DNA of 64,000 bases from Trichormus sp. ATA11-4-KO1 (GTDB lineage: Bacteria > Cyanobacteriota > Cyanobacteriia > Cyanobacteriales > Nostocaceae), in the NCBI GenBank assembly GCA_019358915.1, contig JAHHIM010000055.1, positions 32,001-96,000 on the forward strand, written 5' to 3'. A model generated the notes under the pieces. It made no database searches. It was not told where the DNA came from and was given only the letters and a program-made list of their open reading frames with translations. Both the position numbers and the translations under genes were made by a program. This document shows positions 3,022 through 63,224 of the stretch, piece by piece. How positions within the stretch are numbered: position 1 is the first letter of the stretch; every line of letters begins with the position of its first letter.

Positions 3022-4370
3022 TTAACCTAATCTTTCCTGTAAACAATTAGCAATCCGTCGTGCTGCACCTGGTTTACCCATGCGCCGCAGTCCGTTTTCG
3101 GAAATTATTTGCAAAGTATCAGGATTTTTGAACAGCGATCGCATGACTTGGGCAACTTTTGCTGGTTGGTCTACTAAAATCAAAGATGCTCCTAACAGAC
3201 GGCTTTGAGCTTCGGCAAAGGCTGGGGTATATTGGGGGCCATTACCAGGAATAGCGATCGCAGGTTTCCCTAAACCAACAAATTGTTCTGTTGCTGTACC
3301 TGCCATGGCGATCGCTACATCTCCCCAATGTAAACAATCGTTGTAAGCTTGTTGTGTGAGCAACAAATAAGCGTTTCTTTGATTAAAGATTAAGGCATTA
3401 GTATCAGCAAGTGGAATAGGACTTTCCGAGTGGGGTTGCCAACCTTGAGATTGAAGAGTTTGACATAAAATATTATTGTCTAGATTAGGTGCGATCGCCC
3501 CCAAAAATACCACGCTTCCAGAAGTGTGTAAAATAGAATCCCGTTCCTGGAAACTAGCCAGTAATGCAGATACAGCCGTCATAATTACTTCCCAGTTCTT
3601 ATATGCTTCCGGGGGACGAGAACCAGGTAATAAAGTCACAACTAATGGTCTAGCTATTTCTTGCTGTTGGGCATCAGCACTGTAAAATTTTGGGGATGAA
3701 AACGTAGGTTCTAAATCATCCATCATTGGATTGCCTAAATCAAAAGCCGGAATTGACCACTGTTGTAATATTTGCGTAGTCAACGCATCTCTAGGGAACA
3801 CAGCCTGACAACGGCGACGACTCATCAACCAACGTTCCCAAGGATGATAAATCGAACCAGAAAAATTTTCCCAACGTGTAGCTTTTGATTTCCTGGGTAA
3901 TAATCCTACTTCATCTCGGACATAGTATTCTGATTTTGCCGTACCCACAAAAGCATAATTAGCACCACTGAAAGTGGCAAATAATAAAGGTACAATATCT
4001 CCTACAGCTAAAATAGCTACCTTGTTGCCTAATTTTTTGTGATAACGCACCCAACGACGCATAGCTTTAATTTGCTGGAGAGTTAGTTGCACTAAACCGC
4101 CACGCACATCTCGTACTAGTTGGCGACTATCCATATACACAAAACCACCAGAAGGCATAGTGCGGACTGAACCGATAAGCGGGATATTTAACTTTTGGTA
4201 AGTGTGTCCTTCACCCACCAAAGGTAAAGCAAAGATATCTGGGGGGTTTGCTTGTTGCTGGAGTTCCTGCAAAATGGTAACAGCGATCGCATCTTCACCA
4301 TGACCATTACTTAAAACTAGTAGTTGCAAACCAGAGGTCGCATCTGACGATAATTGGGATACATTACTCA
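3022..4370 (-). CDS. Lipid-A-disaccharide synthase-related protein (GT-B fold)
   Basis: LSNGHGED, LLPGSRPPEA and AMAGTATEQ motifs; ATG at 4370 preferred over the track start at 4410. Confidence 0.85.
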
Positions 4371-53300: not shown

Positions 53301-53373
53301 GGGGAATTAGCTCAGCTGGTAGAGCGCTGCGATCGCACCGCAGAGGTCAGGGATTCGAGTTCCCTATTCTCCA
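53301..53373 (+). tRNA. tRNA-Ala(CGC); probable prophage integration site
   Basis: GGGGAATTAGCTCAGCTGGTAGAGCG-CTGCG-AT-CGC-AC-CGCAG...ATTCTCCA with G3:U70. Confidence 0.95.
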
Positions 53374-53436
53374 TTTTGACATTAAATGTTAGCTTTATTA
53401 ACCCCGCTTGCTGTCCTAATGTTGTCTTAAAGAATA

Positions 53437-53778
53437 TCACAGTATTACTTGTATTTCTCCGTCCTGTTCATCAACCTGATAAAAACAAGTAATAGGGATT
53501 TCCCCGTCTTCCCCTAAGTACCCTACAAGCCTAAATGTTACGCCAGGGTATTGAGATAGCCCTAGTGTTAGGCTTTGCTCTAGTGACCTCAAGAGCCTGG
53601 GCAGGTCAGATACCACAGTAAACTCAACCCCACCTATACCAAAGTCGGGGGTCATCACCCTTTCTTCATATGTAGTCTGTAATATGTGCGCTATGACCTC
53701 AGGTATGGTTCTATCATACTCAGAGGTTAACTGTACTGTACCGTTTAGTATAGTTATAGGGTATTTAAAAGTAGTCAT
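53437..53778 (-). CDS. gp25/GPW-like baseplate wedge protein
   Basis: FKYPI...IAHILQTTYEERVMTPDFG resembles the gp25 motif il.T..GER.m.P.FG. Confidence 0.8.
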   Translation of the reverse strand: MTTFKYPITILNGTVQLTSEYDRTIPEVIAHILQTTYEERVMTPDFGIGGVEFTVVSDLPRLLRSLEQSLTLGLSQYPGVTFRLVGYLGEDGEIPITCFYQVDEQDGEIQVIL

Positions 53779-53798
53779 AGTTTACCTATATTTAGTCA

Positions 53799-53820
53799 GG
53801 TTGACTAAGTACCAATAACC
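53799..53820 (+). promoter_or_regulatory. Phage promoter/operator cassette 1 (degenerate)
   Basis: GGTTGAC-TAAGTACC-AATAACC. Confidence 0.45.
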
Positions 53821-53833
53821 ATTGAGGTAACTT

Positions 53834-54004
53834 ATGATTGTTAGTCCTGATAGACTTTATCGCGTACTTGAACACTTGGATTCAGCCCTAGCCGAGTTAC
53901 AGGAAGCATCTGTAGAATCGCCGACTGACCGTACACTTCGCAGGGTTATTACTATTGTCATTACAGCCTTAGCTGTACTACGGTTTTACGTGGCTACTAA
54001 CTAG
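53834..54004 (+). CDS. Small phage protein (56 aa)
   Basis: GAGG RBS, MIVSPDRLYRVLEHLDSALAELQEA...; not in the ORF track. Confidence 0.65.
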   Translation: MIVSPDRLYRVLEHLDSALAELQEASVESPTDRTLRRVITIVITALAVLRFYVATN

Positions 54005-54035
54005 GGTTGACAGTTAAGGTTAACCTGGTTATAAT
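54002..54035 (+). promoter_or_regulatory. Phage promoter/operator cassette 2
   Basis: TTGACA-17 bp-TATAAT (perfect consensus) with GGTTGAC-N7-GTTAACC. Confidence 0.85.
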
Positions 54036-54064
54036 ATTATTTATAATACTAGGTTAACTGATTT

Positions 54065-54301
54065 ATGGAACTCGTTAGAGATAATAAACCCGCGCCTGTT
54101 TACCCGTTGGAAGTGGCGAGAGAGTTGCCAGCAGGGGTTATCAGAGCATTTTGGCACCCTGAATATGGTAGACTATACCTATGGGATGACGTTAAGTATG
54201 CGTTTGATTATGAGGGTAAAACGGGTAACTCAGTAGTAAGATACATGAAAGGTAACTTACAAAATCCCGCTCTGGGTCTCCTCTGGCTAGAGAGAGAGTG
54301 A
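54065..54301 (+). CDS. Phage protein, BRO-N-like fragment
   Basis: IRAFWHPEYGRLYLWDDVKYAFDY resembles BRO N-terminal pattern. Confidence 0.55.
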   Translation: MELVRDNKPAPVYPLEVARELPAGVIRAFWHPEYGRLYLWDDVKYAFDYEGKTGNSVVRYMKGNLQNPALGLLWLERE

Positions 54302-54588
54302 GTGTCAGATTTAAGTTAACCGAGTTTCAAAAATGTAAATCCCATATTTGGCTCACCGCAAGGGGTTTTGTTTTAACACTAGAACATTCTAAATCACCTA
54401 ATATAGTAAAACTTAAGCAAGCTATAGAAGCTCAAGTAGACTGGGAGTTGTTCAAGGTAACTTTTATGAGTCATGGGTTCTCTCAGCTATCCCCACAATC
54501 TAACACTAGATTAGCTATGGAAGTTGAACTAGAGAAAAAGATTTTACCATATTCACAACGCACCATTTTAAGCCTAAAATCTGCTTAA
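54298..54588 (+). CDS. Phage hypothetical protein (possibly second half of a BRO-like gene)
   Basis: 4-nt overlap with the upstream ORF; WLTARGFVLTLEHSKSP resembles the BRO C-terminal half. Confidence 0.5.
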   Translation: MSVRFKLTEFQKCKSHIWLTARGFVLTLEHSKSPNIVKLKQAIEAQVDWELFKVTFMSHGFSQLSPQSNTRLAMEVELEKKILPYSQRTILSLKSA

Positions 54589-55106
54589 ACCCACCCCTTG
54601 GTAACTAAAGTATCATTACGGCTGTCCATGGCTCCCACAGTGCAAACTTGGGAGCCATTTATGGTTACAGATGTTGCCTGAGTAAACTCCACAGACTCAG
54701 CCGCCATAGTTAACCCTGTAACCCCTGTAATCTCCATATTACCCTCAGGCTTTACTGTAACTATCACCGATCCTACTTTGATTACTAGGTCATCTCCTGA
54801 GTTAATCACAGGATTACGTAGGTTCTGCATAGACCCAAAATATACCCCTTGATGCGGGTCTCCATCAATGAAGCCCATTAAGACGGTTTCACCCGCTAAG
54901 GGTAATGGGGGGCTAAATGAACTAAATGGTAATGAGCGGTATAGCCAGTTAGTGTTAGACCTGCCCCCCTTAGAAGCGTCTAAGCACTGGATACGTCCTA
55001 AGCCTAAGGGGTCGTCAGTTACACTAACTATCCCGTAGGCTAACCCTTGCACTCGACCTTGTAGTCCTTGGTTAGCTTTGACCAAATCTGCGAAAATGTC
55101 CATCAC
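54585..55106 (-). CDS. Baseplate assembly protein V / tail spike (gpV-like)
   Basis: GIVSVTDDPLGLGRIQ, PLAGETVLMGFIDGDPHQGVYFG (OB fold), beta-repeat C-terminus. Confidence 0.88.
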   Translation of the reverse strand: MMDIFADLVKANQGLQGRVQGLAYGIVSVTDDPLGLGRIQCLDASKGGRSNTNWLYRSLPFSSFSPPLPLAGETVLMGFIDGDPHQGVYFGSMQNLRNPVINSGDDLVIKVGSVIVTVKPEGNMEITGVTGLTMAAESVEFTQATSVTINGSQVCTVGAMDSRNDTLVTKGWV

Positions 55107-55771
55107 TTAATAATCCCTTGTACTCTTAGGTCTGCTACTCTGAAGGTACCCGCAACGCCCCCGGATTTATAAGTTACCGTGACGTTACCGACCTCATCTG
55201 TGGCTACATTAACGCTTTGGTTTCTAATATTTAACTTAGCCCTTTTACCTGAGTTTTTTAGGGCTTCCGTTACCGAGTTAGTTATATTCTGCCGTTCTCT
55301 AGGTGTGTAAGTTACCTGAGGCTTACCAATAGTGCTAGGGGTGACCGCTACGGGTTCTCTACTAATGAGTAAGTCTAAGTTAGCCTCAGCCTGTGTGACT
55401 TTACCCGATCTCCATTGCTGCTCTACGGGCGTAAACCTGAGTATATGACAACGCTCGATAGATGTAGAGCTAAAGCTAAACCTTAAACTAGCTCCTGAGA
55501 TACACCATGATGTTAGTTGCTGTATGGTATCAGTAACGTCCTTAGTCATACCTTGGGATATAAAAAGTATCCGAGGGATTACTAAGGTACTAGTAGAGCT
55601 ATTCCAGCGTGTATCTGGTTTATCAGTCCCCAATACGCTATTAGTTGCATAAGTAGCTTGGTGCGACCACTGCAACTTTTCAGGGTCTAGTAGAAAGTTA
55701 TAAGTTATCTTACCGTCAGATAGGGTAGCCCCCGTAGTCCCTAAGGGCTTATCAGGTAGTCTATCTTGCAT
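55103..55771 (-). CDS. Putative tail-tube initiator / baseplate protein
   Basis: FLLDPEKLQWS..ATY motif; position directly after the tape measure gene. Confidence 0.6.
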   Translation of the reverse strand: MQDRLPDKPLGTTGATLSDGKITYNFLLDPEKLQWSHQATYATNSVLGTDKPDTRWNSSTSTLVIPRILFISQGMTKDVTDTIQQLTSWCISGASLRFSFSSTSIERCHILRFTPVEQQWRSGKVTQAEANLDLLISREPVAVTPSTIGKPQVTYTPRERQNITNSVTEALKNSGKRAKLNIRNQSVNVATDEVGNVTVTYKSGGVAGTFRVADLRVQGIIK

Positions 55772-55785
55772 TTATTACTATTAAG

Positions 55786-57621
55786 TCAGGCTAGGCTATT
55801 CTGTTGATATTGTACATATGCTTGGTTTAGGGCTTGCAGCATAGCTTGCGCGTTCTCTTGGGGGTTACCATTTTGTACTGGTACATTTATAGTAGGCGCA
55901 AATGATTGCTTAGTCTCTTTGGCTATAGGTACACTAGGTAGCGGTAATCCAGGGGTGACTACAGGTTCTACGGGGGTAGATTTAGTATCACTAGGGTTTA
56001 GCACGTTACCTATTATTCCACCACCAGATTTCAGTGCACCTAAAAGCCCATTATCCCCTAGAGGATTTAATCTACCAACTACACCTCCTAAGGCACCTAA
56101 AGGATCAGTAGTAACACGGTTCACACCAGTCTTAACTGTTACCCCAACGTTAGGTATTATATTACCTACCCAGTTGGTAATGTAATCGAACAAGCGCTTT
56201 ATGGCTGACCCTAACTCGTCTAAGTTACCTTGGATAGCTCCTAGGATAAACCCACCAATAAAGTCACCCAACCCATACAGAGCTTTTAAGATACCTACAG
56301 TAACGGTTCCCCAATCTACGCGGGTGAATAGCATGGTAAACAGTTGACCCGTCAAGAAACCTAGCTGTTTGCCTAGTTCCCCCCAGTTTACAGCTTTAAT
56401 GGCATTACCCGTACCCTTCAGAGTGTTATTAAGCCCGTTGAACAGGTTAACAAATAAGTTACTGATGTACTTAGTAATGTCTGAAGCCTTACCTCCTTCC
56501 AAAGTGCCTGTAACGGTGTTAGTAAGGTCGGTGAACCAGTCTAGTGTGGCAATAATACCCGACATAGGGTCGAAGCCAAAGATTTCATTACCTTTCAGGA
56601 TACCTAATGAGTTAAAAAGGGTACCTAGGTTAGTCATAAACCCTTGAACAGCGTCTAACCCCGACCGCCCTCCGGCACTTCCTAACTTTCTTAGAAAACC
56701 AAATAAACCTATATCCGTATCGAACAGGTTGGTATTGGCTAAGGCAATCATAGACTCTACTGTACCATCAAACTCCGCTATAGTTTCATCTGCTACAGCT
56801 TGTCTGGCTGCTACTTTAAGTATTTTAGCTCTAGTTTCGGTGGTCAATGATTTCCAGTCTGCGTCGGACTTTCCAATGATTTTGAGTTGCTCATCTATAA
56901 ACTTACGGAGTAGCGGGTTCTTCTGAAATATATCATTAGTCCCAAAGGCTTCCCCAATACTCATACTACCTGCTAATACGCGGTTAAGCGCGCTACCGCC
57001 CATATTAGCATCTACACCACGGATGCTGGCTAGTACCCCAAAGCGTTTAGTTAGCTCCAATGAATCCTCACGGAACTTATCAATATTACCTTTAGAGTAC
57101 CCGGCTACTGTAGCGGATATCTGGCTATTTATAGCATTATATTCGGCGTTTTCCCCCGGTAGAGCCGCAGCCATCTTAGATATCTCTATACGGGTGTCTT
57201 GTACCAGTTCTTTAGCCCTGCCAAAGTTGATCCCTAACTGGCTACTTAGGTCACCCGCTTGGGCTAACCCTAAAGTCTGGGACTTGGCGGCACTCTGAAC
57301 CGTGCCTGTCATTTTCTGTATACCACTGGTGACTAGGGATACCGCAGCCATTACCCCTGCTGCTCCTAAGTTACCAAATAATATAGACCCCGCTAGCCCT
57401 CCTTGTCCTTGTTCAGCTTGTCCGCCTAAACCCTCCCTAAGTCCGCTTAGGTTAGCCTTAAGTGTGGATAGTTGCATAGGGTTTAGCCCTTGTATATCCT
57501 TCAAGCTTAGGTTAGCTCTGGTGGTAGCCCCCACCGCTTCTATATTTTTCTTTATCTTGGATAACTCAGGGGATAAAAGATCCTTAGCAGTTAGCGTAAC
57601 TTGTATTTTATTACCGACCAT
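55786..57621 (-). CDS. Tail tape measure protein
   Basis: KIQVTLTAKDLLSPEL N-terminus; G/A/L-rich amphipathic repeats (VNWGELG, VDWGTV). Confidence 0.85.
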   Translation of the reverse strand: MVGNKIQVTLTAKDLLSPELSKIKKNIEAVGATTRANLSLKDIQGLNPMQLSTLKANLSGLREGLGGQAEQGQGGLAGSILFGNLGAAGVMAAVSLVTSGIQKMTGTVQSAAKSQTLGLAQAGDLSSQLGINFGRAKELVQDTRIEISKMAAALPGENAEYNAINSQISATVAGYSKGNIDKFREDSLELTKRFGVLASIRGVDANMGGSALNRVLAGSMSIGEAFGTNDIFQKNPLLRKFIDEQLKIIGKSDADWKSLTTETRAKILKVAARQAVADETIAEFDGTVESMIALANTNLFDTDIGLFGFLRKLGSAGGRSGLDAVQGFMTNLGTLFNSLGILKGNEIFGFDPMSGIIATLDWFTDLTNTVTGTLEGGKASDITKYISNLFVNLFNGLNNTLKGTGNAIKAVNWGELGKQLGFLTGQLFTMLFTRVDWGTVTVGILKALYGLGDFIGGFILGAIQGNLDELGSAIKRLFDYITNWVGNIIPNVGVTVKTGVNRVTTDPLGALGGVVGRLNPLGDNGLLGALKSGGGIIGNVLNPSDTKSTPVEPVVTPGLPLPSVPIAKETKQSFAPTINVPVQNGNPQENAQAMLQALNQAYVQYQQNSLA

Positions 57622-57652
57622 GTTGACAGTTATGGTTAACCCAGTGTATAGT
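57621..57652 (+). promoter_or_regulatory. Phage promoter/operator cassette 3
   Basis: TTGACA-18 bp-TATAGT with TGTTGAC-N7-GTTAACC; abuts the tape-measure start codon. Confidence 0.75.
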
Positions 57653-57679
57653 GATAAGTGTAGTTAAATAAAGATAGTC

Positions 57680-57970
57680 ATGGAACCGTTAACTGAAAGA
57701 TTATCAATGCAAGCTTATATCGCAGGGTATCAAAGTATAGACTCATGGTTAGCCGCACTAGAGGAGGGTGAGATACGTCAAGTTAAGGCAAAACTCTACC
57801 ATGTGGCTTTAACCGAAGACGCATGTAAGTATCTAGATATCCTAAAAATAACAGCATATCTCAGGGGTTGTACTCTCCTAGCACTAGACCCTGATGAAGC
57901 TTTTGAAACCTTTAGAGATTGTTATAACCCGCACGTTAACGAGTTTATGGTACTCATCGAGGAAATCTAA
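57680..57970 (+). CDS. Phage hypothetical protein
   Basis: 96-aa ORF behind cassette 3. Confidence 0.7.
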   Translation: MEPLTERLSMQAYIAGYQSIDSWLAALEEGEIRQVKAKLYHVALTEDACKYLDILKITAYLRGCTLLALDPDEAFETFRDCYNPHVNEFMVLIEEI

Positions 57971-58486
57971 ATGGTACACGAGTTATTAGGTAACCATAAA
58001 GCATCTTCAGAATGGTATACCCCTGAAGACATTTGGGGTAGAATCCGGCTTATTTTTAACGAGGATCACGTGTATGACCCTTGTCCCGCAGGGGGTTTGG
58101 CAGGTTTAGAAGCAGATTGGAGTTTATTTAACAATATTTACGTAAACCCACCTACCCCCGCAGCACCTTGGGCTTTAAAAGCACTTCAGACACATAAAGA
58201 CAATCCTGAGGTTGACATCATATTTGCTTGTTTCTCTGAAGCTGTTCTATGGCAAGTTAACGAACTTCAAGACCATTTAGTCTGCTGGGTACGTAAAAGG
58301 ATTAGCTGGATAGACGGCAACCAGACCGTTAAGGGTAAACCTAACTCTAACTATCTGAAACCTGCGAAGTCACCTAGAAACTATAATGCCTTTGTTTGCT
58401 TAACCAATAACCCTGAGATACGTCACAGGTTTCTTTTCCGTTTCCAAGACCTTGGTACTATTAGAACATCTATACCCTTAAACTAA
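57971..58486 (+). CDS. Phage Dam-like N6-adenine methyltransferase homolog (atypical NPPT motif)
   Basis: SEWYTP, YDPC, DW..IYVNPPT, RKRISW. Confidence 0.7.
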   Translation: MVHELLGNHKASSEWYTPEDIWGRIRLIFNEDHVYDPCPAGGLAGLEADWSLFNNIYVNPPTPAAPWALKALQTHKDNPEVDIIFACFSEAVLWQVNELQDHLVCWVRKRISWIDGNQTVKGKPNSNYLKPAKSPRNYNAFVCLTNNPEIRHRFLFRFQDLGTIRTSIPLN

Positions 58487-58689
58487 CTCCGTATCTCTGA
58501 TAATACTTCTAGGGTCTCAATAACCCTCCAGAGTTCCCAGTCTTCCCAACATACAGCTAACCCTACACTATAGCCACCTGAAGCACTCAAGGTGGCTTTT
58601 ACAATATCGTACCTGGCAAAAGCCCGCCCGGATAATGTGAATATCCAGATACCGTTATACTGCCTTCTGATTGAAAACTGGAAAGCTAT
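58483..58689 (-). CDS. Tail chaperone frameshift extension (T part of G/GT)
   Basis: 68-codon ATG-less +1 frame overlapping the end of the chaperone gene, ending WEDWELWRVIETLEVLSEIRS. Confidence 0.55.
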   Translation of the reverse strand: MAFQFSIRRQYNGIWIFTLSGRAFARYDIVKATLSASGGYSVGLAVCWEDWELWRVIETLEVLSEIRS

Positions 58690-58939
58690 TGGTTACAAGA
58701 CCTCCTAGCTCGTTTAGGGTTTCGGCGGGCATATCTAATACCTCATCAACGGTCAGCATATCTGTACTCAGTGCTGACAGGATAACCGCCATCACTTCCA
58801 CGGGTACGCTATCATCCTTAAGCGATCGCTGGATAGTTGCTAAGTCCCGACCCTTGGGCTGTCGAAATCCATAAGGTCTATCAAGTGTAACTGTGAGGTT
58901 ACCAGAGCTGTCAAAAACTGCTTTAGGTTTACTAGGCAT
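58655..58939 (-). CDS. Tail assembly chaperone (G)
   Basis: FRQPKGRDL...LTVDEVLDMPAETLNEL resembles Mu gp41/P2 E-type chaperones; lies upstream of the tape measure gene. Confidence 0.75.
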   Translation of the reverse strand: MPSKPKAVFDSSGNLTVTLDRPYGFRQPKGRDLATIQRSLKDDSVPVEVMAVILSALSTDMLTVDEVLDMPAETLNELGGLVTNSFPVFNQKAV

Positions 58940-58972
58940 AGGTTTTAGCTTATTTAAGATTATTTAGTCAAA

Positions 58973-59006
58973 TAGGGTTGACACTCAGTGTACACTCCGT
59001 TAATAT
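58973..59006 (+). promoter_or_regulatory. Phage promoter/operator cassette 4
   Basis: TAGGGTTGACA-CTCAGTGTACACTCCGT-TAATAT. Confidence 0.7.
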
Positions 59007-59036
59007 AAGGGTATAAGTAAATAGCGAAGAAAACTT

Positions 59037-59201
59037 ATGAGTCCCCAAGAACGAGCTAGAGCTATCTCCGCCAAGTACAACCTAGAGAATCCCGCAGAAG
59101 CAGCCTTGATCAGACTTGAAAGAGAAACCCGGATGGAAAACGCCGAACTGCAAGCTGACCTCCAACTCCGACAGTACCAACTAAGAGTAACACAAGAGTA
59201 A
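59037..59201 (+). CDS. Small phage protein (54 aa)
   Basis: MSPQERARAISAKYNLENPAEAALIRLERE...; not in the ORF track. Confidence 0.65.
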   Translation: MSPQERARAISAKYNLENPAEAALIRLERETRMENAELQADLQLRQYQLRVTQE

Positions 59202-59235
59202 TAGGGTTGACAGTTGTGGTTAACCCGGTTATAGT
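59202..59235 (+). promoter_or_regulatory. Phage promoter/operator cassette 5
   Basis: TTGACA-17 bp-TATAGT with GGTTGAC-N7-GTTAACC. Confidence 0.82.
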
Positions 59236-59262
59236 AGATACATAGAGAACAAAGGAGCCGAT

Positions 59263-59490
59263 ATGAGCCGCACACAGAGGGATATACAATACAGCAATGA
59301 TGCAGGAATCCGGATAGTTCGTTTCAGAAATAACCAAAGGCTCGAACAGCAGGCAATAGACGAACTTTATGATTATGGGTTACTCCCTAACCCTAGGCTC
59401 ATGGTTAGGGCTAACCGCCTAACCCATCCTAACGACGATTTAACCATATCTGCGGTATTAGAAACCTATATAAGAGAAGACGATGAGTAA
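59263..59490 (+). CDS. Small phage protein (75 aa)
   Basis: AAGGAG RBS behind cassette 5. Confidence 0.75.
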   Translation: MSRTQRDIQYSNDAGIRIVRFRNNQRLEQQAIDELYDYGLLPNPRLMVRANRLTHPNDDLTISAVLETYIREDDE

Positions 59491-59641
59491 AGAACCCGAT
59501 TTATTAGTTAGTGATACTACCGTGATTGTTACCGTACAGGAGTCGGCAGATACTCAGGTCATTTATGAGGCACCTGCTAATGAATATGCGGATTTCTTAG
59601 AGGCTAATAATCAAGCCGACCAAGCCCGTAACCGTAAGTGA
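59483..59641 (+). CDS. Small acidic phage protein (52 aa)
   Basis: MSKEPDLLVSDTTVIVTVQESADTQVIYEAPANEYADFLE...; overlaps the upstream stop. Confidence 0.6.
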   Translation: MSKEPDLLVSDTTVIVTVQESADTQVIYEAPANEYADFLEANNQADQARNRK

Positions 59642-59643
59642 TT

Positions 59644-59667
59644 TAGGTTGACAGTACCCATTAACCC
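59644..59667 (+). promoter_or_regulatory. Phage promoter/operator cassette 6 (no clear -10 at 17 bp)
   Basis: TAGGTTGACAGTACCCATTAACCC. Confidence 0.55.
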
Positions 59668-59714
59668 TATCAGGTGTGCTATGAAGGTTTTACTCTAAAA
59701 ATGTTATTCTTTAC

Positions 59715-59775
59715 GTAGACGTTGAAACCTGCGTACGCCGAGGTGGTCACCCATTACCTAACGGTAAATGTCTAC
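59715..59775. ncRNA. Candidate structured RNA (multi-stem junction)
   Basis: Closing stem GTAGACGTT/AATGTCTAC enclosing three hairpins, in an ORF-free gap between cassette 6 and a terminator. Confidence 0.35.
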
Positions 59776-59816
59776 TACTACCACTAAAATAAGATTGTAA
59801 TATTTTGTACATCATA

Positions 59817-59842
59817 ACCCCCTAACCACTTAGGGGCTTTTT
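59817..59842 (+). terminator. Intrinsic terminator
   Basis: CCCCTAA-CCAC-TTAGGGG followed by CTTTTT. Confidence 0.7.
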
Positions 59843-59850
59843 ATTGTTTA

Positions 59851-59884
59851 TAGGGTTGACACTGAGTGTACACTCAGTTATAAT
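59851..59884 (+). promoter_or_regulatory. Phage promoter/operator cassette 7
   Basis: TTGACA-17 bp-TATAAT; the spacer forms the 18-bp palindrome ACTGAGTGTACACTCAGT. Confidence 0.87.
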
Positions 59885-59912
59885 AGAGAAGTAAAGAGAC
59901 AAAGGTTAAATC

Positions 59913-60647
59913 ATGGCTTATCAATCAGGCACTCAAGTGATTAAAGGCGAGCGTGCAGTTATTGAAGTAGCTGGCAAGCCTATTGAAGTGTTCATGTTAC
60001 CGAACGGAGATTATGTTTACTCTCAAGCTTCTGCCTGTGAATCCATTGGCAAAGACAGAAATGACTGGTCTAACTATCTACGCAGTAATAAGGGTTCCAC
60101 GGGTCGTCACCCCTCGGCTGAAACCCCTATTAATACGTTAGAGGATTTTGCAGAACCCCCACGGGCTAAGGGTTCCACGGGTCGTCACCAGGGTACTCTG
60201 GTATCAATCGGGCGGACTAGAGTAAAGGCGATTAATGATGTACAAGTAGCAGCTTACTGGTCTTGGAAGTCTAAGAACGGTAGCGTAGAAGCTGAGGCAC
60301 TGTTAACCGCATTAGTATCCGAGGCATTAGCCAGACGTGCTGACGATGCTTTTGGAATCAAAAAGGCTGAGGCAACCTATGAGCAACAGACAACTACTTT
60401 GAGACTAGACCTAATAGAACACGCCAAAGCGCAATATATGGCAGGGAATAAAGATGAGGTGTATTCCACACTCAGTGAGACTGAAGAGGAAATAAGTCTA
60501 CTTATGGTTACTATAGAGCGCCTAAAGTTATCCATAGACGATCTGGATAACTGGTTGATGCGTCATAAAGACTCAGAGAAGCTAGAGATAGCAGAAAATA
60601 GACTAAAAGCACTACTAGGTGTGCCAGTTAGTAAAGTGGCACAATAG
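59913..60647 (+). CDS. Antirepressor-like (P63C-N-type) phage DNA-binding protein
   Basis: IEVAGKPIEVFMLPNGDYVYSQASACESIG; AAYW...ALLTALVSEALARRADDAFG. Confidence 0.65.
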   Translation: MAYQSGTQVIKGERAVIEVAGKPIEVFMLPNGDYVYSQASACESIGKDRNDWSNYLRSNKGSTGRHPSAETPINTLEDFAEPPRAKGSTGRHQGTLVSIGRTRVKAINDVQVAAYWSWKSKNGSVEAEALLTALVSEALARRADDAFGIKKAEATYEQQTTTLRLDLIEHAKAQYMAGNKDEVYSTLSETEEEISLLMVTIERLKLSIDDLDNWLMRHKDSEKLEIAENRLKALLGVPVSKVAQ

Positions 60648-60678
60648 GGTTAACAGTTAGAGCAAACCAAGTTATAGT
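60645..60678 (+). promoter_or_regulatory. Phage promoter/operator cassette 8
   Basis: TAGGGTTAACA-17 bp-TATAGT, followed by a leader similar to that of cassette 5. Confidence 0.75.
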
Positions 60679-60706
60679 AGATACATAAGCAACCAAGGAG
60701 CCAACA

Positions 60707-61012
60707 ATGAGCCGTTTAACAACAACACAAGCCCGTCGTAACTTTACTTCAGTGTTAGCCAGACACAACGTTAATGACTTCCGTTCTGTGACTAACTTAG
60801 TATATAGAGAGCTATTCGGGTTAGATGCTAACGGGTTAAGAGAAGCCCACGGGTTACCTGATGGTACTAACTTACGGGAAAGCCTACCAGGGTTAGATTT
60901 AGCAGCTATTACTATGCTTGAAGCGTACGTGGCTATCAATATTGATAACTTTAACTCCATTGAAGATGCTATTAGCTACGCGGCTACGGAAGTTAAAGAC
61001 CTACTCGCATGA
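60707..61012 (+). CDS. Phage protein resembling antirepressor/DinD-like C-terminal domains
   Basis: TNLVYRELFGLDANGLRE..GL....NLRESL...DL..ITMLE. Confidence 0.65.
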   Translation: MSRLTTTQARRNFTSVLARHNVNDFRSVTNLVYRELFGLDANGLREAHGLPDGTNLRESLPGLDLAAITMLEAYVAINIDNFNSIEDAISYAATEVKDLLA

Positions 61013-61079: not shown

Positions 61080-61223
61080 ATGACTAATGATAAACGAGAA
61101 CAAGAAAAACAACAAGTACGCGAGCAATGGGTAAAAGATGAAGCCGAGTTGCAGATATACAAAGAACAGATAAAGTTATCCAAGGAAGCGGCGGAAAAAG
61201 ATAGCCGAGGTAGTGGGAGATAG
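61080..61223 (+). CDS. Small charged phage protein (47 aa)
   Basis: GGGAG RBS, MTNDKREQEKQQVREQWVKDEAEL... Confidence 0.6.
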   Translation: MTNDKREQEKQQVREQWVKDEAELQIYKEQIKLSKEAAEKDSRGSGR

Positions 61224-61254
61224 CTTATTATAGTGGTAGCCTAATACTACCACT

Positions 61255-61488
61255 ATGGATATACAAAACCAATATAAAGCATTAGAGACTAGCTTGATTG
61301 AACTCAGGGCTAGTCTTTCTACTGAGGACGCAGATTATATGATAGTCACTACCGCGCTTAGGGCACTTCGGCGATCGCAGATAGCCTATAGCCTAACCCG
61401 GTATTCAGATAGCCAGACACCTCTTGATAATAAACTACATCCATTACTAACGCCCTCTAAACTTACGCACAAGCGCACGGTGCGTTAA
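61255..61488 (+). CDS. Small phage protein (77 aa)
   Basis: ORF track; the start lies in the 10-bp hairpin ATAGTGGTAG/CTACCACTAT. Confidence 0.55.
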   Translation: MDIQNQYKALETSLIELRASLSTEDADYMIVTTALRALRRSQIAYSLTRYSDSQTPLDNKLHPLLTPSKLTHKRTVR

Positions 61489-61833
61489 TAGTTGATTACG
61501 GTCAACCCATAGTACTTGAGTATTTATACCTACCCATGAGCCATCTTGGGTGGGTTGAGCATTTAATATAAGTATCCCTTTAGCTAACTCATCCGGCGTG
61601 TAAGTCCTAGGGATTCCCTCAACCCATAGATCCTCTTGGTTAATGTCTACCTGGTTAGCCATAAAGTTTACAATGTCTTGCTTAGTCATTGTCATAACTT
61701 TAGGGCGAGGGATTAGCTCTTTAAACACACTACCTGATTTTAGGACTACTGTTTGGTATTGCGGGATTCCTAACCGGTCAGCTATGGCGGACATTCGGCT
61801 ATTAACATCAACTAGTCGGGAAACTAGACTCAC
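61447..61833 (-). CDS. Putative head-closure/neck protein
   Basis: Coupled to the gp10-like gene; size and position. Confidence 0.5.
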   Translation of the reverse strand: MSLVSRLVDVNSRMSAIADRLGIPQYQTVVLKSGSVFKELIPRPKVMTMTKQDIVNFMANQVDINQEDLWVEGIPRTYTPDELAKGILILNAQPTQDGSWVGINTQVLWVDRNQLLTHRALVRKFRGR

Positions 61834-62342
61834 GGTCTACCTCCACGGCGTAGAAGTGGTTTAGCGGCTCCTATAATGTCTTTTTGTTTACGCGTCAACT
61901 TAGTCTTAGGGTCAAACCCTCTGCGGTTGGAGAAACCGCCGGGTACATTATCTGACACTCGGTTACCGTAGGTGGGCTGGTCAGGGGTACCCACCATCTC
62001 AGCTATTACTGAGGCTCCTAATGTCCGTCCTAACTCTTTAGCTAACTCTTGCTCAAACACTAGGCTAATATCAATCAAGCTAGACGTTAGCATTTGCCTA
62101 GGTGCCATTTTACGGGTACCTAGTTCTACAAAACCAGCATAAGGTGTATCATTTAACCATCGGATGCCGTTACCCTCTAACTTAGCCTTCCAGTTACTTT
62201 TTAGCTCTCCAGTGTCCACCGGGGTTCTAGCGGATACTAAGGCTAACCCAAAGGTTTTAGCCACATTAGCGGCTTTAGTGATTGCCGGGGTGACTTTATT
62301 ACCTGTAAAAAGTTCCCCAAAGTAGCTTATTTCTGCGCTCAT
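61830..62342 (-). CDS. HK97 gp10-like morphogenesis protein
   Basis: TPVDTGELKSNW, NDTPYAGFVELGTRKMAPRQML. Confidence 0.88.
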   Translation of the reverse strand: MSAEISYFGELFTGNKVTPAITKAANVAKTFGLALVSARTPVDTGELKSNWKAKLEGNGIRWLNDTPYAGFVELGTRKMAPRQMLTSSLIDISLVFEQELAKELGRTLGASVIAEMVGTPDQPTYGNRVSDNVPGGFSNRRGFDPKTKLTRKQKDIIGAAKPLLRRGGRP

Positions 62343-62716
62343 GCGTAGTTCCTAACGACTAAGGGGGTGACTGATAAACCCTGAGGGCTTCTACCTAGGT
62401 ACTTATCAAACTTTAGGGTAACTCCTGATATTTGTTCTAGCTCTTTAAGCAGCCTAGTACCCTCGGCTTTAGTTATTAGGATGTTACGGTTAAAGTCTAC
62501 CTTAACGCCCCCCACATCTATAGCCATCGAGTCTTTACGGTTCTGTTCTAACTCAGCATCTATCAGTAGCAACTTAGACAGTATTGTCTGCATGTACTCG
62601 ATGTCATCAGATGTGTAGTCAGGGATCTGTATAGGGTTACTCGTGTACCTAGGGTCAAACTGGCGCGCCGAATAACCTAATACATAACATAAGTTTTGAT
62701 TAAACGACAGAGCCAT
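62339..62716 (-). CDS. Putative head-tail adaptor
   Basis: 125 aa, helical, VGGVKVDF motif; position. Confidence 0.5.
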   Translation of the reverse strand: MALSFNQNLCYVLGYSARQFDPRYTSNPIQIPDYTSDDIEYMQTILSKLLLIDAELEQNRKDSMAIDVGGVKVDFNRNILITKAEGTRLLKELEQISGVTLKFDKYLGRSPQGLSVTPLVVRNYA

Positions 62717-62721
62717 AAGTA

Positions 62722-63159
62722 TTACTGATATGTGGGTAATGAGTTGAATATTAGTACTAACTCAAACACTGCTAAACCTGAAGACTCACGATCCCAGGTG
62801 GGATACTTATAATCAGCTAACTGACAGTTAGAATATAGGATCTGCTTAGCACCGTCGAAGGGTGAACCAACCAAATCGGACTTAACGGGTTGAATGGCTA
62901 CGTTAAAGGGCGTAGGGTTAGCCACTTGTTGCTCTACCCAGTTAATAACTACCCCATCCTCTTTAGGATCGAAGTTTTTCATTACCGTTAGGTCTTCGAG
63001 GCTAAGAAAACCTACGAAAGTCTGTTCTATACCTTGTTTACCGTCGTTATATTTGATTTTCTCACGGGCTACTTTACCGCCGTTTAATGCCTTCCAATAT
63101 ACCCCTGAGATGTCAGAGATGGTAATGATGGCTTGCTTTTGAGATATGGGATTTAGCAT
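62722..63159 (-). CDS. Tail tube protein (gp19-like)
   Basis: YWKALNGG, EDLTV, NCQLADYKYPTWDRESSGLAVFELVL. Confidence 0.75.
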   Translation of the reverse strand: MLNPISQKQAIITISDISGVYWKALNGGKVAREKIKYNDGKQGIEQTFVGFLSLEDLTVMKNFDPKEDGVVINWVEQQVANPTPFNVAIQPVKSDLVGSPFDGAKQILYSNCQLADYKYPTWDRESSGLAVFELVLIFNSLPTYQ

Positions 63160-63196
63160 AGTTAAACGTGGTTTAAATATAAATAGTCAAATATTA

Positions 63197-63224
63197 AAGC
63201 CTCTTAGGTGATTCTAAGAGGCTT
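63197..63224. terminator. Hairpin after the major capsid gene
   Basis: AAGCCTCTTAG / CTAAGAGGCTT 11-bp stem. Confidence 0.65.

Follow-up and report, generated by a model that had tools for sequence, protein, structure and literature searches.

Mycobacteriophage L5 and the Streptomyces phage phiC31 carry 18-30 dispersed repressor sites, and the operators of phage BPs have been described alongside them (PMC4557955). A comparable arrangement is described below for a prophage of the cyanobacterium Trichormus sp. ATA11-4-KO1, the first 10.7 kb of which lie in a stretch of 64,000 nucleotides (the window; positions 32001-96000 of contig JAHHIM010000055.1, or C55:32001-96000). Coordinates up to 64,000 without prefix are those of the window. 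The recurrent element is a sigma70-type -35 box inside the dyad GGTTNAC-N7-GTNAACC, which occurs at 26 prophage sites on both strands. A sequence-only reading of the window had reported eight plus-strand copies as a candidate for an undescribed system of antisense cassettes. As in L5 and phiC31, many related sites are spread over a temperate phage, at promoters or between genes, and one repressor is proposed to silence them all. L5 sites, however, are asymmetric and bound by a monomer (PMC4557955), whereas here the site is a dyad with the -35 box as its left arm and binding is predicted. The asymmetry and orientation with transcription that characterize L5 stoperators are not found in the dyad.

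In T4-like phages a unit of stop codon, sigma70 promoter, inverted repeat, leader and start codon recurs before small, uncharacterized genes. These promoter-early stem-loops (PeSLs) follow the same plan as the dyad units, but they sit in hyperplastic regions of lytic phages, and their stem-loops have been shown to terminate and to recombine (PMC2839356, PMC4122927). The units of the prophage, by contrast, have sequence-fixed arms, head replication genes as well, and sit among the structural genes of a 46.6-kb prophage. By analogy, the dyad unit would be like a dispersed-operator regulon built into PeSL-like units. The extended start-associated sequences (ESAS) of Cluster K mycobacteriophages are likewise inverted repeats at a set distance before the starts of non-structural genes, with a phage-specific consensus. 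ESAS differ in having 17-bp arms, a variable spacer and a tie to the Shine-Dalgarno-like start-associated sequence (SAS), and no -35 box is described in them (PMC3203893).

Repeated motifs were also reported from the Nostoc phages A-1 (43 copies) and N-1 (21 copies) and proposed to be promoters or stoperators; both phages were described without an obvious repressor (PMC4916379). They share with the prophage a related capsid family and genome-wide intergenic repeats, and N-1 has sigma70-headed antisense open reading frames (ORFs) between baseplate genes. The sequences are nevertheless unrelated, the Nostoc phage motifs are described as asymmetric, and no integrase is reported for these phages (PMC4916379). 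How freshwater and terrestrial cyanophages control lysogeny is poorly understood. In lambdoid phages, morons are promoter-gene-terminator units that lie between late genes and are expressed in the lysogen. The closest counterpart among the window copies is copy 7, with a terminator, a perfect promoter and an antirepressor- or BstA-like gene. In the prophage, unlike in morons with their expression in the lysogen, the operator is shared with replication genes.

With dispersed operators, PeSLs and repeated Nostoc phage motifs already published, the claim of an undescribed system was overstated: the dyad repeat is wider than first reported and less exotic than proposed. No published description of either the dyad or the late-type motif introduced below was found, in a search whose coverage leaves out most subscription journals. 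The more original aspect is the two-class promoter layout that accompanies a fragmented virion operon.

Distribution and anatomy of the dyad promoter

All eight reported copies are present, and seven of them are dyad promoters or dyads, as listed here with the scores from a matrix built on the 19 sites outside the window (22.6-35.7 bits for the seven).

54002..54035, plus strand: copy 2, dyad promoter TTGACA-17-TATAAT with the dyad over the -35 box and spacer; 35.7 bits
57618..57652, plus strand: copy 3, dyad promoter TTGACA-18-TATAGT; 25.2 bits
58973..59006, plus strand: copy 4, dyad promoter of the AGTGTACACT subtype, TTGACA-17-TAATAT
59202..59235, plus strand: copy 5, dyad promoter TTGACA-17-TATAGT; 34.5 bits
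59643..59667, plus strand: copy 6, dyad without a -10 box and without a downstream gene; 22.6 bits
59851..59884, plus strand: copy 7, dyad promoter of the AGTGTACACT subtype, TTGACA-17-TATAAT, whose spacer is an 18-bp perfect palindrome
60645..60678, plus strand: copy 8, dyad promoter TTAACA-17-TATAGT; 26.6 bits

Copy 1 (53799) scores -1.6 bits and is not a member; it is a pair of late-type motifs read on both strands. Several details of the sequence-only reading were borne out, namely the perfect TTGACA-17-TATAAT promoters at 54002 and 59851, the lack of a -10 box in copies 1 and 6, and the similar heads of copies 5 and 8 (48 of 62 positions identical). The copies at 57621, 58973, 59202 and 60645 match 10-11 of the 12 promoter box positions.

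The first matrix, built from the eight reported copies, gave 23 matches of at least 20 bits in the prophage, some of them one palindrome scored on both strands, against three in 5.92 Mb of host DNA; 16 of the 23 lie beyond the training span. Such an excess is well above chance. Iteration converged on the 26 sites, and the resulting matrix finds two matches of at least 20 bits and seven of at least 16 bits in the host. Simulated prophages (n=100) contain on average 0.12 matches of at least 16 bits each. In its strict form the dyad is found at 12 places in the prophage and at a single one in the host, where the best matches show no -10 box and several fall inside ORFs. The dyad repeat is a real and strongly non-random regulatory signal, with many related sites over a temperate phage genome and few in its host, as in an operator regulon. 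The description as a plus-strand array of the late region does not hold, since 19 of the 26 sites lie beyond the window and 16 of these are on the minus strand. The window copies are part of a prophage-wide set and probably do not form an antisense system of their own.

The left dyad arm is the -35 box, and the dyad covers this box and the spacer. A -10 box (TANNNT) follows at 17-18 bp in 15 of the 26 sites, compared to a background of 6%, and among the exact TTGACA promoters of the prophage 13 of 16 carry the dyad. Dyad centres are intergenic in 23 cases, although intergenic DNA makes up 9.6% of the prophage. Thirteen of the 15 sites with a -10 box sit 57-69 nt ahead of a start codon; the remaining two are found 95 nt before a primase/helicase-like gene and before a long ORF-free stretch. 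Upstream, 12 sites begin -8 to +14 nt from a co-directional stop codon, which is sometimes the TAG of the motif itself.

Two classes of motif, at distinct positions, precede different classes of genes. Dyad heads are found before 16 of 38 non-structural genes and one of 24 structural genes (p 0.001). The headed genes include the primase/helicase-like gene (PF19263), a cytosine methylase gene and genes in the cluster that holds a pol-gamma-like polymerase and an exonuclease. Five of the six arm pairs are nearly invariant and compensatory change is absent, which favours a protein site, as such fixed arms would be expected of one.

The AGTGTACACT palindrome subtype, also recognized in the sequence-only reading, has copies at 58987 and 59865 and a third at C55:123303; none occurs in the host. 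The third copy lies between a late gene and a leftward promoter-like site, which faces four clustered dyads ahead of the gene of a 200-aa protein that weakly resembles the 244-aa cargo protein of cassette 7. In the cluster (C55:122530-123330) the four dyads fall within 500 bp, together with short duplications that include one of 56 nt. The cluster lies upstream of this antirepressor-like gene and could be an immunity switch, an origin or a set of decayed cassettes. A perfect variant dyad with GGTCAAC arms and a 7-bp spacer, changed on both sides relative to the consensus, is found at C55:120184-120204 between the sheath gene and a divergent 143-aa gene.

The late-type motif of the structural genes

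The structural operon is split into blocks on both strands, and most blocks have their own copy of a second motif, TGACT-N3-TA-N4-TAAAY, shared by the upstream regions of structural genes. Exact copies number nine, against 0.09 expected at the host rate, and each lies 17-37 nt ahead of a structural gene. When one mismatch is allowed, the motif is found before seven of ten blocks without a co-directional structural neighbour upstream, compared to four of 14 blocks with one. The motif is probably a late promoter. The copies that stand apart in the window are as follows.

53780..53798, minus strand: exact, 20 nt before the gp25-like gene, overlapping copy 1
53802..53820, plus strand: one mismatch, before a 56-aa ORF, back to back with 53780..53798
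57662..57680, minus strand: two mismatches; it faces copy 3 from within the leader of cassette 3 and lies 59 nt ahead of the start of the tape measure gene
58952..58970, minus strand: exact, 31 nt before the tail assembly chaperone (TAC) gene, back to back with copy 4
63171..63189, minus strand: exact, 30 nt upstream of the tube gene and immediately past the capsid terminator (63197-63224)

The region of copy 1 is a back-to-back pair that precedes the gp25-like gene and the 56-aa ORF. At both the tape measure and the portal gene the late-type motif lies inside the leader of a plus-strand cassette and faces the dyad promoter. The capsid leader has no cargo gene; it contains a degenerate late-type motif, followed by a weak dyad ahead of the start codon. 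A candidate reader of the motif is a helix-turn-helix (HTH) protein encoded before the terminase, whose gene is kept in seven homologues at 50-62% identity; a fold search with this protein gave no firm match.

A probable shared operator of early promoters

The repeat is a sigma70-type promoter signal with its dyad over the -35 box, and it probably, though by no means certainly, acts as the shared operator of one phage repressor, by which early genes would be kept off in the lysogen. Host RNA polymerase would fire the dyad promoters early, and a dimeric phage repressor on the dyad would block recognition of the -35 box. Dyads without a -10 box, or just behind a late-type motif as in the capsid, portal and tape measure leaders, may be extra operators or roadblocks. 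The late-type motif would be read late, perhaps with the clade-conserved HTH protein. On this view the plus-strand cassettes would be early units lodged among late blocks that have promoters of their own, and in such places their orientation would be largely harmless. A second regulator may control the AGTGTACACT subtype, which could be active in the lysogen. The proposal of the sequence-only reading that one repressor could switch all units is compatible with the data and can be widened to the prophage as a whole; it is still an inference, as no binding protein was identified.

Several observations weigh against this picture, and the main gap is the repressor. No cI-like protein was found in the annotated ORFs or in 73 further frames (Pfam, PHROGs, NCBIfam). 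The sole HTH match (C55:102051-102488) falls below the cut-off, and the model of this protein matched no solved structure at E 0.001 or better in a fold search. Four of the 26 sites score below 16 bits when left out of the matrix, and two (100178 and 117549) were oriented manually toward their -10 box. Two promoters immediately before the exonuclease gene lack the dyad. The variable sixth arm position can pair as RNA in 20 of the 26 sites (permutation p 0.025), and the dyad site 110608 was called as a terminator, so that the dyad may also have a role as an RNA hairpin. On the late side, the motif is weak (three mismatches) before the capsid, scaffold and sheath genes, and its occurrence with at most one mismatch before 11 of 24 structural and two of 38 other genes is a circular test, because the motif was derived from those same genes. 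Neither motif occurs in the 50-kb stretches of A-1 and of N-1.

A sequence search of the PDB also found no repressor. At C55:121928-122530, 42 matches were obtained, of which 18 were scanned and gave one weak HTH match. The prophage encodes several antirepressor-like proteins. Most cassette ORFs have no family in Pfam, PHROGs or NCBIfam. The 244-aa protein falls into a cyanobacterial family that has no name and is predicted to resemble antirepressor-type proteins (P63C, BstA_C and KilA-N); 15 of 400 genomes have homologues. For the 101-aa cargo ORF a longer form was sought and not found, a 96-aa ORF has no homologue among 300 genomes, and the 56-aa and 77-aa ORFs do not align with each other. 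PADLOC returned weak partial matches only, and the cargo ORFs have no tblastn match at E 0.001 in six related sequences.

A broader and decidedly speculative scenario is that of a cyanophage lineage whose virion operon consists of self-promoted blocks, with accessory and essential genes shuffled at two promoter modules. A non-cI repressor of the P63C/KilA-N class would read the dyad, shutting early promoters and roadblocking late transcripts, and the facing promoters at the portal and tape measure genes would form an early-to-late timing switch. If it is true that the modules are the joints of a scrambled structural operon, shuffling of the PeSL type would extend from accessory to essential genes. 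In practical terms, the prophage provides a defined 21-bp bait for a repressor pull-down, a candidate late-promoter motif common to a relative, and strong, probably repressible promoters as a possible resource for cyanobacteria.

Gene layout of the window

The genes and terminators of the prophage part of the window are listed here.

53437..53778, minus strand: gp25-like baseplate wedge gene (PF04965, E 3e-4, below cut-off; phrog_5026)
53834..54004, plus strand: 56-aa ORF without a family, ending in the TAG with which copy 2 begins
54065..54588, plus strand: two overlapping ORFs (78 and 96 aa), no family, converging on the spike gene with a 4-bp overlap
54585..55106, minus strand: baseplate spike gene with an OB domain (PF04717)
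55103..55771, minus strand: 222-aa gene, flanked by the tape measure and spike genes, with an exact late-type motif at 55770-55788
55786..57621, minus strand: tape measure gene, recognized by tblastn against the one annotated in Lbo402-yong5; copy 3 directly adjoins its start codon
57680..58486, plus strand: cassette 3 cargo, a 96-aa ORF and a 171-aa Dam-like N6-adenine methyltransferase (PF05869, weak at E 8e-5, below cut-off; phrog_111)
58572..58597, plus strand: terminator-like hairpin whose U tail is short, at the end of cassette 3 and ahead of the TAC gene (-14.0 kcal/mol, z -3.97)
58655..58939, minus strand: TAC gene (PF10109, E 1e-4, below cut-off)
59037..59201, plus strand: 54-aa ORF, no family
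59263..59641, plus strand: 75-aa and 52-aa ORFs, no family
59819..59836, plus strand: intrinsic terminator-like hairpin with a U tail, upstream of copy 7, closing the 58973-59644 group
59913..60647, plus strand: gene of the 244-aa protein; its stop is the TAG of copy 8
60707..61012, plus strand: 101-aa ORF resembling the C-terminal portion of a family of phage transcriptional regulators (phrog_2657, E 3e-6; DdrC model, E 2e-4, far below cut-off)
61080..61488, plus strand: 47-aa and 77-aa ORFs, the last overlapping the 3' end of the late gene at 61447-61833
61447..63159, minus strand: late genes, namely a 128-aa gene, neck, a 125-aa gene and tail tube

The 78-aa and 96-aa ORFs meet at a run of GA dinucleotides (54285-54301) and, judging from the sequence, may be one gene split at this run, by eye possibly a Bro-N-like one.

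Alternative explanations

The alternative that survives best, with a modest chance of being right, holds that the units are PeSL-type modules, in which the dyad is mainly an RNA stem-loop attenuating read-through and the stop-promoter-leader-start units are joints for homologous recombination. It can coexist with the operator function. The anatomy is that of a PeSL, with an upstream stop, sigma70 boxes, a stem-loop between -35 and -10, a Shine-Dalgarno sequence and a start (PMC2839356), and the proximity of 12 sites to a co-directional stop agrees with it. So do the folds of the best dyads (-10 to -13 kcal/mol) and the above-chance pairing at the variable position. The order of the structural genes points the same way: it is scrambled over both strands here and in Leptolyngbya phage Lbo402-yong5, with six and four strong sigma70 promoters in the structural block, whereas the genes are collinear on one strand in three distant prophages (G112, G208 and G335) with zero, one and zero, a comparison of five genomes that is not a statistical sample. 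Moreover, the 56-nt duplication (C55:122593 and 122919) ends within a dyad. Against the stem-loop stands the conservation of the arm sequence beyond pairing, and most dyads lack a U tail. Homology between heads is short, with a mean longest exact run of 8.5 nt and a maximum of 19 nt barring that one duplication; several order changes (tube, wedge, spike) have no dyad at the joint, and the motif was found at none of the 14 fetched loci with homologues of the 244-aa protein. By analogy with PeSLs, the heads could plausibly serve as recombination points for cargo.

Antisense or interference control of virion genes, as the sequence-only reading had proposed for the lysogen, or in a weaker form a delay of late genes in early lytic growth, is unlikely. 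All six strong sigma70 promoters in the left structural block do point against late genes, cassettes 2 and 8 enter late gene 3' ends with no terminator called, and the late-type motifs of the tape measure and portal genes lie inside an early cassette leader that faces them, where the weaker form would be strongest. However, the same heads precede genes of the replication module, so that the dyad units should be off in the lysogen, and antisense silencing of virion genes there is not supported. Most late blocks downstream of an antisense cassette carry a late-type motif of their own, so that such an insert would not have to interrupt late transcription. Two of the four cassette groups, cassette 3 and the 58973-59644 group, end in terminator-like hairpins, and an antisense cassette in the related fragment L094 is closed by a two-way terminator. 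The same layout exists in N-1, which is reported without an integrase (PMC4916379), and sense-oriented units occur among the late genes of Lbo402-yong5. Because the hairpins where cassettes 2 and 8 reach late 3' ends are weak or lack a tail, some early interference is possible.

A host regulator that would tie phage genes to host physiology, for instance PlmA, a GntR protein of cyanobacteria, acting at a CGRE1-like site, is very unlikely to read the dyad. With its GTTG or GTTA flanks and GTGTACAC-like centre (PMC6191309), CGRE1 does resemble the arms and the subtype core; host Yfr2 promoters hold a similar short centre, and the lack of an identified phage repressor would leave room for such a protein. 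Nevertheless, CGRE1 begins 55-57 nt upstream of the start site, activates, and is reported to be restricted to marine picocyanobacteria (PMC6191309), whereas the dyad covers the -35 box. The arms are 11 nt apart (24 matches compared to 3.8 expected) and not 13-14 nt (7 and 9 compared to about 4), a full CGRE1-like site was found in neither prophage nor host, and the best host matches to the dyad, as noted, lack a -10 box and lie partly in ORFs. The PlmA reading fails because spacing and position differ.

Although the prophage encodes a tyrosine integrase (phrog_1), dyads as targets of a tyrosine recombinase (7-bp arms, 7-bp overlap) in a shufflon- or integron-like array are highly improbable, as the 7-bp spacers differ among copies, the att repeat contains no dyad, and family scans found no second recombinase besides the att integrase. 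The dyad geometry does resemble core-type recombination sites, for which tyrosine recombinases need matching overlaps, and the arm order of the attC core is the reverse of the GTT..AAC arms here. By eye, the NtcA, LexA and HLR1 boxes do not fit the motif.

Comparison with related phages

Searches with blastn found no close relatives in a phage collection or among 60 related genomes, and IMG/VR queries with the capsid, a capsid alignment, the primase, an HTH alignment and the portal found none either. A single IMG/VR record (G001) agrees with the prophage in its site positions and in its proteins (100% identity) and is therefore the same prophage, not an independent one; a further record, L093, is likewise that of the window. 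Genome searches gave distant prophages only, in 3 of 400 and 18 of 388 genomes, and three were compared in full. A pattern scan of genome contigs yielded 80 loci, none named cyanobacterial; the six that were inspected, from Vibrio and Chitinophaga, are palindromes with a U tail and were not considered further.

Lbo402-yong5 has its own dyad, TGTAA-N8-TTACA, on seven sigma70-like promoter sites, two of which head the sense-oriented genes among late genes. This genome (OR994056) also holds 11 copies of an element of about 57 bp with 8-bp inverted ends, GTCCACTT..AAGTGGAC, in both orientations and mostly beside scattered structural genes (e.g., at 3883, 6371/6463, 16528, 25610, 30297/30411, 41411/41525 and 48211). 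The element is a candidate late promoter or rearrangement unit.

The fragment L094 (38-63% protein identity) served as an out-of-sample check of the late-type motif. An antisense 113-aa ORF lies between its neck gene and the next late gene, with the two-way terminator mentioned above and, by eye, a sigma70 promoter ATGACA-17-TATAAT. The single late-type match of L094 stands back to back with this promoter, before the one late gene that follows the antisense cassette. The prophage has the same gene pair in coupled form, without the motif. At the next junction the situation is reversed, with coupling in L094 and a break headed by the late motif in the prophage. The dyad of the prophage is absent from L094 and L095.

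In N-1, two of the antisense ORFs between the baseplate and gp25-like genes are TTGACA-headed, one by a promoter of a five-copy type. The 11-mer CCCCGGARTCA occurs 57-59 times in 50 kb each of N-1 and A-1, within genes and as inverted intergenic pairs, and probably corresponds to the motifs reported for these phages (PMC4916379). The available text of the Mic1 transcriptome paper (PMC11237433) contains nothing on promoters. One DNA sequencing run, possibly the source of the same DNA, and no RNA run is listed. Its contigs show one joint over C55:85000-101000 and C55:116001-133000 (33 of about 47 kb), and this joint is the motif matching its own copies elsewhere on the same contig; as contigs drop rare variants, the comparison is uninformative on mini-circles or induction.

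Borders and setting of the prophage

The prophage spans 46.6 kb (C55:85326-131981) and is bounded by a 61-bp direct repeat at a tRNA-Ala(CGC) gene, for which the window contains:

53301..53373, plus strand: tRNA-Ala(CGC), the integration site
53326..53386, plus strand: attL, the 61-bp direct repeat, with its twin attR at C55:131921-131981

It encodes integrase, terminase, portal, capsid, sheath, tube, baseplate and fibre proteins, together with a pol-gamma-like polymerase, exonuclease, endonuclease VII and methylases. Among named phages, the closest capsids belong to Lbo402-yong5 (30%) and to Mic1 and the Nostoc phages A-1 and N-1 (24-25%). In a circular phage form, attP and the integrase gene would fall between gp25 (53437-53778) and the baseplate wedge gene (C55:129591-131842), which are neighbours in the collinear relatives. 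A tRNA-Ala near phage genes is also found at the G112 and G335 loci.

The HIP1 octamer, whose density marks the host as a cyanobacterium, occurs at 8.3 per 10 kb in the host compared to 1.9 in the prophage. GGWCC has no site in the prophage (0.82 per 10 kb in the host), while GGTACC has 24 sites, 12 times the host rate; these counts suggest that the prophage avoids a host restriction site.

The DNA polymerase gene (C55:110885-114163, minus strand) encodes the mitochondrial pol-gamma-like type of the cyanophages S-CBWM1, S-TIM5, Mic1 and A-HIS1/2, and its first ATG falls within a weak dyad. Downstream of a dyad promoter, 716 nt without long ORFs (C55:106575-107290, minus strand) fold better than 20 of 20 shuffles (z -3.4). 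The stretch ends in a 79-nt element that matches both ends of the transfer-messenger RNA (tmRNA) model, without the mRNA-like part (E 3e-13; 41 bits, under the gathering score of 47), and contains a G3-U70-type pair. Its sole phage match covers 39 nt of an annotated tmRNA. By its sequence, the stretch is a candidate large non-coding RNA with an alanine-acceptor mimic.

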